A stretch of DNA of 64,000 nucleotides from the sequence record MH494197.1, one strand, 5' to 3'. This DNA comes from Escherichia phage CMSTMSU. The notes below the pieces were generated by a model. The model saw only the letters and a program-made list of their open reading frames with translations, was not told where the DNA came from and ran no database searches. The position numbers and the translations under genes are program-made. Of the stretch, positions 2,992-56,515 are shown in pieces (position 1 is the first letter of the stretch; every line of letters starts with the position of its first letter).

Positions 2992-3347
2992 GTTGTTCTT
3001 ATCGTTGGTGTATGAATAAACACTATTATAAAGTACTATCATCGTGCAATAGTACTTTAAATCTATTCTATTACATTCCAACCATTGCAGCACGGATCGA
3101 TAGTGCTATATTTGAATCCGTCCGGTGTTTTTCTTGTCCAGTCTGTTCTAAAAAATAACATCATATGACGGGCCGCATCATTGCGATTAGTGCTATCGTT
3201 AATAAAGTCCCAACTGGTATAATGATTCATCGTTATTAATCCAAAGGCTTACATTCCAATGAGTTTTGTTTTTGTGACCTAAGAACATTTTGATTTAGCC
3301 ATTTTTAATCTTATATAGTGGGGAACTATTTCACCCTGATGTAAAAC

Positions 3348-4640: not shown

Positions 4641-4949
4641 AAATCCGTCAGTACTATACCATAGATCATCTTTGGAGTATTCAGTACTGCCATCAGCCCC
4701 TCACATGTTACCCTAGGAGGATGAAGATCACCGCGGTACTGAATACTGTTAGAGGGAATCCACCAGCTTGGTGGTATAATCGTTTAGATTAAAATCAGTA
4801 CTGACACCATTCTGTTAATATCAGTACTGTTATTGATTTTCATATGAGGTTCAAAAAGATGTACCCACCACAGGAGGAACTATCTTTTCTGTACTGTCTC
4901 ACAGGAGGTAGAGTAAATGAATCGTTCGCAACTCATCTCTATGTAGAAC

Positions 4950-4977
4950 ATTATACAGTACTGAATCATAATGTCAA
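4950..4977 (-). promoter_or_regulatory. sigma70-type early promoter (minus: TTGACA-16-TATAAT)
   Basis: Matches the conserved early promoter element; transcript runs leftward into the ORF-free repeat region. Confidence 0.5.
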
Positions 4978-5189
4978 TAGCTTTCTTTCATTATTCAGTA
5001 CTGATATTCTTGAGAACTACCCGACTACAAACATCATTATATCCCACAAATCATAAACGTCCCAACGTAAATTTCAACTTTCGAAGATCCAACTTTATTT
5101 CATAGGTACTCCAAAATTTTAGGATCGAGATTTAGGATGGAGTACTAACCAACTTTTGCTGAGCTCTGGATATTAAGGTGAAAGTAATA

Positions 5190-5500
5190 ATTCAGTAATT
5201 AATCATTGGTGATTACTTTTGATTACATTTGATGTAATTTGCAAAATGGAAAAGGAGCTTGAAACTAGTACGGCAGACTTCCTCTGCCTACTAGGTGCTG
5301 GTTTCATCTATCGGAGGGAAATGGATTAACCTTAGCAATACGTAACTGAATACGTTCTTGATTAAACGTGCACATTCCTGTACTCTATTACACTCTAGTA
5401 CACTCTAGTACTCAATACTGATCACTACAATGATTATAAATGATTACTTAAATGTTTATATATGATTACTTATGACTACATATGATTAGGGTTTACTGGG
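5190..5500. repeat. TGATTAC short-repeat cluster with adjacent direct repeat
   Basis: TGATTAC recurs about seven times in two sub-clusters; TACACTCTAGTAC is duplicated in tandem at 5390-5415. Confidence 0.4.
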
Positions 5501-35332: not shown

Positions 35333-36611
35333 TTAGCCCAATATATTCACCTGCATTACATATACCACTAATATATGCAATTTTTGATTGCGATGTGCCT
35401 TACGAGGATTGCCACATCCACGCAAATGTATAGATGGTGTTTGCCAGAATTCATCACCACTTTCTGGATCAATAATACACACATTAGTACGGGCATCAAT
35501 ATACTCTACTTTACTGTAATCATATTGTTCATCGTGAATTTCGTTAGCCCTGTTGATAAATTCATCAATTGACATTTTATTTTTCAGGCCAGTTGATATA
35601 TTAGCACGATCATTATTACCACATCCCATCAAATGTGATGATGGTGTTTGCCAGAATTCACCATATACTGGATCTATAATACATACCTTAGTACTGTTGT
35701 TTACGTATACGACCTTACTATAATCATACAGATTATCATGCACCAAATTGGCCTTCTCGATAAATTCATCAAGTGTTAAGCGTTTACTCTGTGCCGTTTT
35801 TCAAAACCACGGATTGGGTTTCCATGACCTTTCCAATGGTAGATTGGTTCTTGCCAGAATTCACCATATACTGGATCTACAATACATACCTTAGTCCATG
35901 CACCAGTATACTCCACTTTACTGTAGTCATATAAATGACCATGTACTGCACGAGAACGTTCAATAAAACTTCGTTGGTGAATGTTTTATTTACTGAAGTT
36001 CCTATACGCCCACGTTCCATGTTACCATGCTTGGATTTTAAATGGTCATATGGCGTTTGCCAGAATTCACCATACACTGGATCAATAATGCATACTGGAG
36101 TTTTACTATTAACATATTCTACGTTTGAATAATCGAACGTATTTCCAAAACGTTCGATAGCTTCAGCTATAAATGTTTCAGTTGTTTTTGATTTAAGTTT
36201 TTACCATTTTCAATGGCACGTTGTGGGCTACCTGCACCTTTTAAATGGGAGCTGGGTTCTTGCCAGAATTCACCATACACTGGATCAATAATACATACCT
36301 TAGTGCTATTATTTTTATAAACAACTTTACTATAATCATAGAGGTTGTTATGAACTTTTTCTGCTCGTTCTATAAACGTTTGGGTGGTTAATTTGCCAAC
36401 ACCTGAACGATATGGATTCCTGACCGCGAATGTGATGTGACGGAGTTTGCCAGAATTCACCATACACCGGATCAATAATGCATACTGGTTCTTTAGCTTT
36501 TACATACACTGCTTTTTCGTAATTATAGAGATCACCATGTACATTTCGTGCAGCAATTAAAAAGTTTCTTGGTCGGTAACACGCATTTTCTTTATCCCTA
36601 GTACGTTTCAT
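35333..36611 (-). CDS. tandem-repeat protein(s), ~45-aa module repeated at least six times (frame breaks)
   Basis: Track ORFs 35333..35746, 35877..36077, 36167..36475, 36348..36611 and shifted frames repeat the module (F)IxRAxxVHxNLYDYSKVxYxxxxTKVCIIDPVYGEFWQTPxxHLxGxG. Confidence 0.5.
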
Positions 36612-36875
36612 TTCGATAGAGCTATAATAGCAAAGGGCTGACCGAAGTCAACTCTTTGATATGATAATATAATCATTCCATAAATTATATATATTGTTTT
36701 CAACACAATCATCATCGCTTAATTCTATAATTGACGAGATAAGTTCTGATAAGGTTTGTGTGTTCAAAACCGTATCACGATGTCTCAACCACCATTTCAT
36801 GGTGAGTGTTCGGATTTTGTACGGATTGTTTGAAAACTTGTATCTAGAAGTGTCAAGTATCATTTTAATCTCTAT

Positions 36876-37314: not shown

Positions 37315-37533
37315 TCATCCTCTCGTCTTGATGAAATAATTATAGCAAAAGGGCTGACCGAAGTCAACCCGTTTTGAAAGGATTTTTAATGGTTTTCGTA
37401 CTGTATGTATTTTGCTTTGTAGTTCTTCTTCCCACAAAACATTTATATTATAAACTAAATCATTGTAGTCACTGTTCACAAAGATAAAATCATACTTCTC
37501 ATTAAAAGTATGAGAAATCAATTTCATTTTCAT
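37315..37533 (-). CDS. hypothetical protein (72 aa)
   Basis: Track ORF; 3' codons overlap the hairpin element, true stop uncertain. Confidence 0.3.
37339..37370 (-). promoter_or_regulatory. composite hairpin terminator with embedded promoter (TTGACT-17-TATAAT), promoter of denV
   Basis: Minus-strand GGGTTGACTTCGGTCAGCCCTTTTGCTATAAT. Confidence 0.65.
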
Positions 37534-37720
37534 AAGTATTATTGAACTTTTAAATTTATATGTTTCTTTTTCTTCTCCAGTTTTTGAACTTTGTATATTT
37601 TTATAAATTCCATGAATTCATCATTGGTCATTGTTTCAGCATCCAACAATACCCAACTTCACAATCTCATACCCGTCCAGATATCCGTAGGAACACTCAG
37701 GTGTTTCATAAGATGAACCA

Positions 37721-37907
37721 TCATAGATGCCCGCATTGGCTTTTGGAATTCTCAAGCAATCGTTGCAGTACTGATACGTCATCAAGAACGTAATACAAGT
37801 TAGCATATAAATCCGTTACAATACAGTACTCCAACATGTCAAATGTATCAATCGAAATTTCAACCTTAGCAAATCGTTTCTTTTCTTTATTATACAATGC
37901 GTACATA
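37721..37907 (-). CDS. hypothetical protein (62 aa)
   Basis: Track ORF 37721..37972 trimmed to internal ATG (MYALYNKEKKRFAKVE...). Confidence 0.3.
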
Positions 37908-37908
37908 T

Positions 37909-38278
37909 TAATCTCCATAATCAAGTTTAACCAACTTACCACACAGATACCCAAAGTTTTCTGGCTTCGCATCTGAATAGAAGAAGTCAGTACTCAACTC
38001 TGAATCCAATGCTAAAGCACACAACTCCACCCAAAATAAACCCTATGTTGTACTGGCTTACAACGTTTCTGTACAGTTACTAGTCCAGTACATGATGACC
38101 ACAACGTAGGGCAGATACCACTATCACTACGCTTGGAGTACTGCATCCAAGAACGTTCATTGAGGTTAGCTATCATCCCTGTTAAGAATAGCTTCCAACT
38201 TTTAAAGGTTGGAATCTTGATAGCATATTCCCCAATGAGTATGACAGTTCGTGTTGCACCTTTCAAATCTATATTCAT
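37909..38278 (-). CDS. small protein-kinase-like protein (frame break)
   Basis: Track ORF 38012..38323 gives Gly-loop/Lys region (NIDLKGATRTVILIGEYAIKIP); shifted frame gives catalytic-loop-like DAKPENFG and DFG-like KLDYGD. Confidence 0.4.
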
Positions 38279-38286
38279 ATTTTTAA

Positions 38287-38538
38287 TTAGAAGAACACAA
38301 ACCAAGTCCAGAATAAATTCCACACTACAAATAAAGACATAGTGGTTTTATGTACAATATCAGCAGTACTGGTCCATCCTCCACCGTGTCCTATTCCATT
38401 TATGAATAGAACTAAGAACAAGATACCATTTACTACAATAGTACATAGTAAGTACACAAACACATTCCATGCAAGTTCAGGAGATACTAACGTAAATGGT
38501 AAAACAATTAGTAGTATTAGAACTAATAAAATTTTCAT
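38287..38538 (-). CDS. small membrane protein (83 aa)
   Basis: Track ORF; strongly hydrophobic. Confidence 0.45.
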   Translation of the reverse strand: MKILLVLILLIVLPFTLVSPELAWNVFVYLLCTIVVNGILFLVLFINGIGHGGGWTSTADIVHKTTMSLFVVWNLFWTWFVFF

Positions 38539-38571
38539 TTATCGCCTCACTTAATTAACGTGACAATTAGT

Positions 38572-38751
38572 ACGAATCAGATTCCCAGTACTCGATTGCT
38601 TCTTTCAGCAATTCTTTAGCACGTTGTTTTGCAATGCGAGCGGGTAACAGATATGTGTACATTAACTGACGCTTCACTTCATTCAGTGAAAGCTGTTCAT
38701 GGTACAGTGCATCCATCAGTCGATTACGAGTACGTAGTTTCATATAAGTTA
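38572..38751 (-). CDS. hypothetical protein (59 aa)
   Basis: Minus-strand ATG to TAA, below track cutoff; translates MKLRTRNRLMDALYHEQLSLNEVKRQLMYTYLL... Confidence 0.4.
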
Positions 38752-39309: not shown

Positions 39310-39384
39310 GACAATTCCTCGATTGTGGGGATGAGAAGTTCATCCCTTGATAAACATTATACAGTACTGAATGAGTTTGTCAAC

Positions 39385-41789: not shown

Positions 41790-41821
41790 ATTATAGCAAA
41801 AGGGCCGACCGAAGTCAACCC
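41790..41821 (-). promoter_or_regulatory. composite hairpin terminator with embedded promoter (TTGACT-17-TATAAT)
   Basis: Minus-strand GGGTTGACTTCGGTCGGCCCTTTTGCTATAAT upstream of 41521..41763. Confidence 0.6.
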
Positions 41822-42440: not shown

Positions 42441-42480
42441 TGCATTACCTCTTATAAAACCCTCAACAATATTTACAAAA

Positions 42481-42498
42481 GGTTGACCGAAGTCAACC
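42481..42498 (-). terminator. hairpin terminator (GGTTGAC-CGAA-GTCAACC)
   Basis: Palindromic copy of the recurring hairpin flanked by A/T runs. Confidence 0.5.
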
Positions 42499-44041: not shown

Positions 44042-44073
44042 AGTATAAAGAAAAGGTTGACCGAAGTCAACCC
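44042..44073 (-). promoter_or_regulatory. composite hairpin terminator with embedded promoter (TTGACT-17-TATACT)
   Basis: Minus-strand GGGTTGACTTCGGTCAACC hairpin then TTTTCTTTATACT. Confidence 0.5.
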
Positions 44074-44810: not shown

Positions 44811-44843
44811 ATGAAAATATTATACGACAAAGGGCTGACCAAA
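44811..44843 (-). promoter_or_regulatory. composite hairpin terminator with embedded promoter (TTGACT-18-TATAAT)
   Basis: Minus-strand GGGTTGACTTTGGTCAGCCCTTTGTCGTATAAT; small membrane ORFs follow. Confidence 0.55.
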
Positions 44844-44936
44844 GTCAACCCTTTTAATTATTTTTAAACTTATGTTTTTCGCCTTCAATAGAGTTCACGA
44901 TGTCATCATGAATCTTGCGAAGGTTATGAGTTTTCT

Positions 44937-48395: not shown

Positions 48396-48427
48396 ATTAT
48401 AACAAAAAGGCTGACCGAAGTCAACCT
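48396..48427 (-). promoter_or_regulatory. composite hairpin terminator with embedded promoter (TTGACT-17-TATAAT)
   Basis: Minus-strand AGGTTGACTTCGGTCAGCCTTTTTGTTATAAT. Confidence 0.55.
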
Positions 48428-56490: not shown

Positions 56491-56515
56491 AGGCTGACCG
56501 AAGTCAACCCTTTAA
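56488..56515 (-). terminator. hairpin terminator after the sigma factor gene
   Basis: Copy of the recurring GGGTTGAC-TTCG-GTCAGCC hairpin with T-run; no TATAAT here. Confidence 0.5.

Follow-up and report, generated by a model that had tools for sequence, protein, structure and literature searches.

A predicted protein-kinase-like fold that ends at its DFG-type motif, encoded by an Asteriusvirus gene split by a sequencing artefact

Results

One gene read in two frames

We analyse a small gene in a stretch of 64,000 nucleotides (nt) from Escherichia phage CMSTMSU (sequence record MH494197.1), called the window here and meaning that whole stretch at its full length. By megablast the window falls in the jumbo-phage genus Asteriusvirus, with 92-99% identity to BF17, Ecwhy_1, 121Q, PBECO4 and others. 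The gene, which we refer to as the mini-kinase gene, lies at 37908..38278 on the minus strand, from a start ATG at 38278-38276 to a stop TAA at 37910-37908, and measures 371 nt in the window against 372 nt in its relatives. An original prediction, made from the letters of the window, described two adjacent frames that give a glycine-loop/lysine segment and then DAKPEN followed by KLDYGD, and both are present on the minus strand at the positions it gave (37909-38278). The first frame, from the ATG at 38278, reads MNIDLKGATRTVILIGEYAIKIPTFKSWKLFLTGMIANLNERSW...KPVQHR and terminates at a stop at 38012; the second opens directly past a GGG run (38043-38041), reads GLFWVELCALALDSELSTDFFYSDAKPENFGYLCGKLVKLDYGD and runs to the stop at 37910-37908. 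This two-frame locus is one real, naturally intact jumbo-phage gene. The frame correction that the original prediction had called for consists of inserting one G, which restores an uninterrupted open reading frame (ORF) of 123 codons plus stop, as in the relatives, for a protein of 123 amino acids (aa) and 14 kDa. About 30 Asteriusvirus genomes have an annotated protein that shares 96-99% identity with the corrected one, and at the same place BF17 and 121Q each have one annotated 372-nt coding sequence (CDS) of 123 codons; the orthologues include BF17 QXN76544, 121Q gp215 (AIT14105) and the vB_EcoM_G17 G17_00098 cluster.

The cause of the split can be read from comparison with these relatives. 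In a three-way alignment with BF17 and 121Q, the gene differs in length at one point only, where the window lacks one G of a GGGG run, and TH47 and SD-1_S14 likewise carry GGGG at this site; among phage records, the gene stands in a single frame in 115 of 118. Over 4.9 kilobases (kb) the window differs from BF17 by 20 insertions or deletions (about 4 per kb), of which 19 are deletions in the window and nearly all lie in homopolymers or at CCWGG (examples are 37733, 39480 and 39804). The 64-kb window contains no CCWGG (Dcm) site at all, where about 42 would be expected from base composition, and each of the three CCWGG sites that BF17 has in the compared stretch is a deletion in the window. Early nanopore basecalling is known to lose bases in just this way, in homopolymers and where Dcm has methylated the DNA. 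The CMSTMSU genome was built from MinION R9.4 reads only, with Albacore basecalling, Canu assembly and polishing unreported (PMC6256653). Because the relatives have GGGG, because the deletions fall in homopolymers and at CCWGG, and because the record is a MinION-only Canu draft, the frame split is a nanopore sequencing artefact in which one G was lost from a GGGG run.

A genuine frameshift, which would make the gene a pseudogene or have it expressed through a programmed or slippage-prone G run, is highly improbable. It is true that the deposited CMSTMSU annotation shows the split (the two ORF products, with TTG starts, are identical to AXC39014.1 of 84 aa and AXC39013.1 of 38 aa), and that the gene is dispensable in nature, its 5' part being taken out by the TH47 and SD-1_S14 deletions described below. 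Yet every other genome compared has GGGG at the site, the same draft, with no polishing reported, has lost bases at every Dcm site and in many homopolymers and has neighbouring genes broken too, and a direct reading of the site finds no canonical X XXY YYZ slippery heptamer in the zero frame. Programmed frameshifting was rejected on the GGGG of the relatives, the window-wide deletion pattern and the missing heptamer. The frame split itself is without biological interest; as a result of the errors of a MinION-only draft many genes in the window will look frameshifted, and frameshift-type findings in this draft, with its systematic nanopore errors, should not be taken as biology.

A widespread family of about 120 residues

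A profile search of the family against a database of 1.84 billion representative proteins, clustered at 50% identity, finds at least 1212 clusters at E <= 1e-3 and 639 at E <= 1e-10, and among the family clusters listed the lengths are almost all 110-135 aa. We aligned 145 diverse members, down to about 27% identity; all counts of members below refer to this alignment. The median length is 123, and 105 of the 145 end 2-3 residues past the Asp of the DFG-type (Asp-Phe-Gly) motif, which is why we regard the short length as native to the family and not the product of truncation. The original prediction had called the protein too short for a canonical kinase and perhaps a kinase-derived regulator or truncated; its reading is supported, the shortness (123 aa) being shared by relatives that stop at the same place.

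Homologues that are 30-50% identical occur in jumbo phages of Aeromonas, Erwinia, Klebsiella, Ralstonia and Pseudomonas, in T4-like phages (Dhakavirus and others), in Pseudomonas and Xanthomonas siphoviruses of about 58 kb and in Rhizobium phages. Salmonella lambdoid prophages have a homologue between an Rz-type lysis gene and the small terminase gene nu1; blastn of this prophage copy against E. coli genomes gave no match. The corrected protein matches phrog_4301 (PHROGs v4, function unknown) at E = 1.2e-42, with residues 2-122 on profile positions 40-167 of 225; taken together, the protein and its distant homologues match this profile at E 1e-42 to 1e-17. A second database search with the 145-sequence profile brought in only further unannotated proteins of about 120 aa, none with a Pfam domain. 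Public records call nearly all members 'hypothetical protein', with sporadic automatic labels such as 'PknA' (Kosakonia phage Kc263) and 'Protein kinase domain-containing' (Ralstonia phage RP12), and a literature search on the family found no description of it. What we add to phrog_4301 is the kinase-fold assignment and the ending at the DFG-type motif.

A few members are longer (Kc263 267 aa, P0125 257 aa, RP12 209 aa, P0149 205 aa). We considered these as full-length kinase ancestors of the short proteins and rejected the idea, since their C-terminal extensions have no Pfam or Protein Data Bank (PDB) similarity and no Ala-Pro-Glu (APE) or alphaF motifs. P0042 was set aside as a tandem-repeat sequence (1073 aa, matched in 16 stretches). 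Two individual records deserve mention. In Aeromonas phage PS1 (MN032614.2, 237 kb), tblastn matches to the mini-kinase fall at two separate places, which suggests paralogous copies in one genome. In the T4-like Dhakavirus phage IME341, the homologue (3001-3345 of the stretch examined) has hoc on one side and an RNA ligase gene on the other, and the match covers residues 7-123 while only the last 55 codons are annotated as CDS, likely a mis-annotation or a frameshift in that record.

Conservation of the active-site residues

Invariant in all 145 homologues are G7 and R10 at the tip of the beta1-beta2 loop, K21 in the AIK of beta3, E41 in alphaC and D120 of the DYG motif, and V12, P23, F31, G34, N38, G65, G110 and Y121 are nearly so. 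Within the catalytic loop, position 103 is Asp or Glu in 144 of 145 members, K105 is kept in 125, and position 108 is Asn in 98 and Ser in 45. The loop of the window protein, Y-S-D103-A-K105-P-E-N108, aligns in register with YRDLKPEN of PKA and SDLKPAN of TTK, and the Arg of the HRD (His-Arg-Asp) motif is absent. The likeness to kinase catalytic and DFG motifs that the original prediction had drawn from a single sequence is thus borne out by residues that are invariant or nearly invariant among diverse homologues.

The combinations found in the loop are informative. D-x-K-x-x-N, the form of the window protein, occurs in 74 members and E-x-K-x-x-S in 43, with E-K-N in 4 and D-K-S in none. Because this D..N / E..S alternation is so tightly coupled, we take it to reflect a maintained, working active site and not decay; the ATP/Mg2+-handling residues are strongly constrained across more than 1200 phage and prophage sequence clusters. 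Subdomains VIII-XI of a kinase (the activation segment with APE, the alphaF Asp and alphaG-alphaI) are missing, as the ORF ends at D123, 3 residues past the DFG Asp.

Predicted fold and similarity searches

We modelled the 123-aa protein with AlphaFold2, using the family alignment as input and no templates, and obtained a predicted local distance difference test (pLDDT) score of 90.3 and a predicted template modelling (pTM) score of 0.80. The predicted order of elements is beta1-beta3, a long helix (residues 28-43), beta4-beta5, a second long helix (79-92), a short helix and strands 109-112 and 115-118, which in the model is the order of a kinase through subdomain VII. The model has a kinase N-lobe, namely a five-stranded sheet (beta1-beta5) with alphaC, followed by a single C-lobe helix (alphaE), the catalytic loop, beta7-beta8 and the loop with the DFG-type motif, so that the conserved Lys, Glu, catalytic-loop residues and DFG Asp are placed on predicted beta3, alphaC, the catalytic loop and the post-beta8 loop. 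Since the protein stops past the DFG-type motif, it comprises Hanks subdomains I-VII only. The original prediction had staked itself on a kinase-fold match emerging after frame correction, and one does emerge: a Foldseek search of the PDB with the model returns the Legionella kinase Lpg2603 as best match (E = 6e-4), followed by many TTK entries. In a set of viral structures (BFVD) the nearest neighbours are members of the family itself, among them the one that RP12 records label 'Protein kinase domain-containing protein', which pairwise comparison shows to be homologous to the window protein (E = 7e-16). On the evidence of the model, the 123-aa protein is predicted to have a kinase-like fold.

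Searches by sequence were made at several levels. With phmmer and a 15-sequence profile, nothing relevant was found among PDB sequences; the 145-sequence profile gives marginal matches there (TTK at E = 0.04, CK1, MAP3K8), of which 26 of 29 are kinases, and these align alphaE, the catalytic loop and DFG in register. Aligned by hhalign with the single sequence of PKA, the family profile matches in register over the catalytic loop and DFG only (E = 0.14, not significant alone). Pfam Pkinase (PF00069) is above its gathering threshold neither for the protein nor in any of the 145 members; sub-threshold Pfam matches are limited to PIP49_C (3 members) and ABC1 (2 members), and APH, choline-kinase and RIO1 give no signal in the 145. 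The PADLOC-DB defence models match neither the mini-kinase nor three relatives, and the RP12 homologue has a weak local PADLOC match (E 1e-4) to PD-T4-6 models over the catalytic-loop/DFG stretch.

The lack of a significant kinase match in Pfam, in NCBIfam and in direct searches of PDB sequences might suggest that the resemblance is due to chance, with short kinase-like motifs turning up in an unrelated small protein or in non-coding sequence. This explanation is already effectively refuted and its probability is next to nil: the ORF is conserved in more than 100 phage genomes and 1212 clusters, and all five canonical catalytic positions sit on the secondary-structure elements where a kinase has them, in the columns with the highest conservation.

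Genomic context

The mini-kinase is encoded fourth in a same-strand run that consists of a 184-aa gene (39309-38755), a 58-aa gene (38743-38567), a gene for an 83-aa membrane protein, the mini-kinase gene and an 89-aa gene. The coordinates of the features discussed are collected in Table 1. The perfect sigma-70 consensus that heads the run may well be its early promoter, and the hairpin with overlapping promoter-like site downstream of it likely marks both the end of the mini-kinase transcription unit and the start of the next, whose gene encodes endonuclease V (Pyr_excise).

Table 1. Positions in the window of the mini-kinase motifs, the frameshift site and neighbouring elements.
Feature	Position	Strand	Remark
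G7 codon	38260-38258	-	reduced glycine-rich loop
Reduced glycine-rich loop G7-A-T9-R10-T-V12	38243..38260	-	beta1-beta2 turn; G7 and R10 invariant, T9 and V12 ~85-95% conserved
K21 codon in YAIKIP	38216..38218	-	predicted beta3; equivalent of the VAIK lysine; invariant (145/145)
E41 codon in N38-x-x-E41	38156..38158	-	predicted alphaC helix (residues 28-43); equivalent of the alphaC glutamate; invariant (145/145)
Catalytic loop D103-A-K105-P-E-N108 (DAKPEN)	37956..37973	-	in register with DLKPEN (PKA) and DLKPAN (TTK)
D120-Y121-G122, DFG-type metal-binding motif	37914..37922	-	past predicted beta7-beta8; D120 invariant; protein ends one residue later
Frameshift site GGG (GGGG in intact relatives; codons R79/G80)	38041..38043	-	one-base homopolymer deletion
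Sigma-70 consensus TTGACA-16-TATAAT, perfect (12/12)	39356..39383	-	upstream of the 184-aa gene; heads the run with the mini-kinase
G+C-rich hairpin and T run overlapping a TTGACT-17-TATAAT promoter-like site	37339..37370	-	one of 8 copies in the window
GTTGACTTCGGTCAGCCC copies	36635-36652, 37351-37368, 41802-41819, 42480-42497, 44054-44071, 44832-44849, 48408-48425, 56491-56508	-	
Downstream gene, phrog_8563 (89 aa in BF17, unknown function)	37636..37906	-	ATG immediately past the mini-kinase stop (TAATATG)

Two sister phages show what becomes of the gene in nature. In TH47 and SD-1_S14, deletions fuse the 58-aa gene to the 3' part of the mini-kinase gene (window 38100-38743), with loss of the membrane-protein gene and the kinase N-lobe; the TH47 junction lies at a short shared ATGGATGCA stretch and that of SD-1_S14 further into the mini-kinase gene. 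As its 5' part is deleted in both, the gene is dispensable.

The downstream phrog_8563 gene, which in the window has lost 2 nt at a CCTGG site near 37733 and is thereby broken, raised the idea that its 89-aa product supplies the missing C-lobe in trans. We rejected this as a general mechanism because the neighbours differ elsewhere (Nu1 terminase, a 73-aa ORF, an SNF2 helicase).

The hairpin element belongs to a repeated set. The sequence GTTGACTTCGGTCAGCCC occurs in eight minus-strand copies in the window against 0.03 expected by chance. Each copy forms a G+C-rich hairpin with a TTGACT -35 box in its 5' arm, and in the two that were examined a T run and TATAAT come next. Their sequence suggests units placed between blocks of genes that combine a terminator with an early promoter. 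At 35877-36611 on the minus strand, three consecutive ORF fragments share a repeat (...YDYSKV/YEKAVY...CIIDPVYGEFWQ.P..H..G) and have no Pfam match at E <= 0.01; they may be pieces of a single repeat-containing gene that sequencing errors of the same kind have disrupted.

Discussion

A minimal phosphotransferase

On balance, the mini-kinase is probably a minimal ATP-dependent phosphotransferase with a pared-down protein-kinase-like fold, encoded by an intact Asteriusvirus gene. ATP-Mg would bind between the beta-sheet and the DYG and DxKxxN loops, and the gamma-phosphate would be transferred to a substrate. Our leading guess for that substrate is Ser/Thr in a host or phage protein, because D-x-K-x-x-N is the version of the loop found in Ser/Thr protein kinases, of which a Lys two residues past the catalytic Asp is the mark. 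With the activation segment and alphaF-alphaI absent, and with them the usual substrate site and core anchor, the exposed face of alphaE would probably be covered by self-association or by docking on a target, by analogy with E2~ubiquitin on OspG. An AlphaFold2 model of two copies joined by a 30-residue Gly/Ser linker (pLDDT about 90 for each copy, overall pTM 0.74) comes without interface metrics and is compatible with a defined homodimer, as weak evidence for one. The gene is one of several small same-strand genes that follow a sigma-70 consensus promoter, and deletions have removed its 5' part in two sister phages; it therefore has the look of an accessory gene, dispensable and probably early, whose role would be host manipulation.

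Several points weigh against this interpretation and should be set beside it. The links to kinases by sequence profile are marginal (E 0.04-0.14) and cover the catalytic-loop/DFG stretch only, and no Pfam, NCBIfam or PADLOC model matched in scans of the corrected protein and its relatives, so that the fold call rests on the predicted structure; activity and substrate of phrog_4301 members are likewise read from sequence and predicted structure. The GxGxxG of a canonical glycine-rich loop is not there, the loop being K-G7-A-T-R10-T-V with one conserved Gly and an invariant R10. The metal-binding Asn is replaced by Ser in about 30% of the family, and the longer members Kc263 and P0149 have degenerate catalytic loops. 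In the two-copy model the linker is covalent. None of the phage contexts compared has a conserved neighbour able to supply the missing C-lobe, and we know of no active kinase that lacks alphaF entirely.

How far, then, do these points favour a protein that binds but does not catalyse? In a non-catalytic nucleotide-binding protein or pseudokinase-like regulator, the N-lobe pocket would accept ATP or some other adenine nucleotide, and the protein would work by binding or sequestering either a host factor or a nucleotide, with no phosphotransfer. The loss of the whole C-lobe part that binds substrate and anchors the core (activation segment, alphaF-alphaI), the reduction of the G-loop to one Gly, the Ser at position 108 in many members and the degenerate loops of some longer relatives all agree with it, as do the small size and likely oligomerisation, in which it may resemble phage binder and sponge proteins. 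We nevertheless consider such a protein unlikely, because D/E103 and K105 are so widely retained, K21, E41 and D120 never vary, even in sequences as little as about 27% identical, and the coupled alternation of D..N and E..S looks like a remodelled working site rather than decay.

Less probable still is an enzyme of kinase fold with a non-protein substrate, that is, a small-molecule, nucleotide or RNA kinase (compare APH and Ark1), or one with another chemistry such as AMPylation or nucleoside monophosphate transfer (compare SelO and NiRAN-type pseudokinases). The family is basic, with a median isoelectric point of 9.0, which would suit a nucleic-acid substrate, and a tiny enzyme without a peptide-binding lobe may suit a small one. 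Against this, small-molecule kinases, RIO and Bud32 have a D-x-x-x-x-N loop, whereas that of the mini-kinase is D-x-K-x-x-N with the Lys of the Ser/Thr type; the in-register sequence matches of the family are to TTK, CK1 and PKA; and Pfam models of the APH, choline-kinase and RIO1 type are silent across the alignment.

The phosphotransferase that we favour can also be given a stronger form, which is possible but doubtful: a self-sufficient active kinase, the smallest known, made of Hanks subdomains I-VII only, in which homodimerising or substrate clamping would complete the C-lobe, and which would be an overlooked phage tool of more than 1200 clusters that phosphorylates host or defence proteins early. 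The alphaF helix is currently held to be the organising element of the kinase fold. Should the family be active, the lower limit for a kinase catalytic core would move to about 120 residues, without an alphaF helix. The mini-kinase would then offer a tractable model for the kinase parts needed in ATP binding and phosphotransfer, and the kinases encoded by phages would gain a large class that is still unannotated, with members in jumbo phages, T4-like phages, Pseudomonas siphoviruses and Salmonella lambdoid prophages.

Comparison with known kinases

Compared with Hanks-type kinases such as TTK/MPS1, PKA and PknB, the mini-kinase has G-x-T-R in place of GxGxxG, lacks the HR before the catalytic Asp, lacks the activation segment, APE and alphaF-alphaI, and is less than half as long. 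It differs as well from RIO1/RIO2, Bud32 and the archaeal RNA kinase Ark1 (173 aa), all of which keep alphaF and further C-lobe helices and have the D-x-x-x-x-N loop without Lys; the absence of a Pfam RIO1 signal in the family likewise gives no reason to place it with RIO or Bud32.

Closer to hand is the T7 gp0.7-type kinase 121Q gp205 (phrog_15752), which is also a phage-encoded kinase-fold protein in the same gene block and the same lineage. It is, however, a different family: gp205 has 224 aa, a D-I-H-S-S-N loop and ITDP instead of DYG, and the mini-kinase and four relatives match phrog_4301 only and not the kinase profiles phrog_15752, phrog_2828 and phrog_18305. The gp205 gene (4810-5484 of the 121Q stretch examined) matches phrog_15752 at E = 1e-98 with no Pfam match, and its equivalent in the window is at about 41.4-42.1 kb; the lineage therefore carries two unrelated kinase-fold genes, gp205 and the mini-kinase, some 3-4 kb apart.

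The nearest parallel in architecture is with OspG and NleH, of Shigella and of enteropathogenic and enterohaemorrhagic E. coli (EPEC/EHEC), which are active kinases without subdomains VIII-XI, the activity of OspG requiring bound E2~ubiquitin (PMC12756638). By its predicted structure the mini-kinase too would be a kinase-like core without these subdomains. The resemblance stops short of kinship: no sequence similarity to OspG or NleH was found, and the OspG chains in the PDB set were not retrieved by the family-profile or phmmer searches. OspG, at about 196 aa (169 residues in chain 4q5h_A), keeps residues past DFG and an N-terminal extension, whereas the 123-aa mini-kinase stops 3 residues past the DFG Asp; and OspG and NleH are secreted effectors that act in eukaryotic cells, whereas the mini-kinase is a phage protein acting in bacteria. 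By analogy it would at most work like OspG and NleH and is not a member of their group. We therefore regard the mini-kinase as a new and more extreme form of the minimal-kinase theme, and not as a new kind of system.
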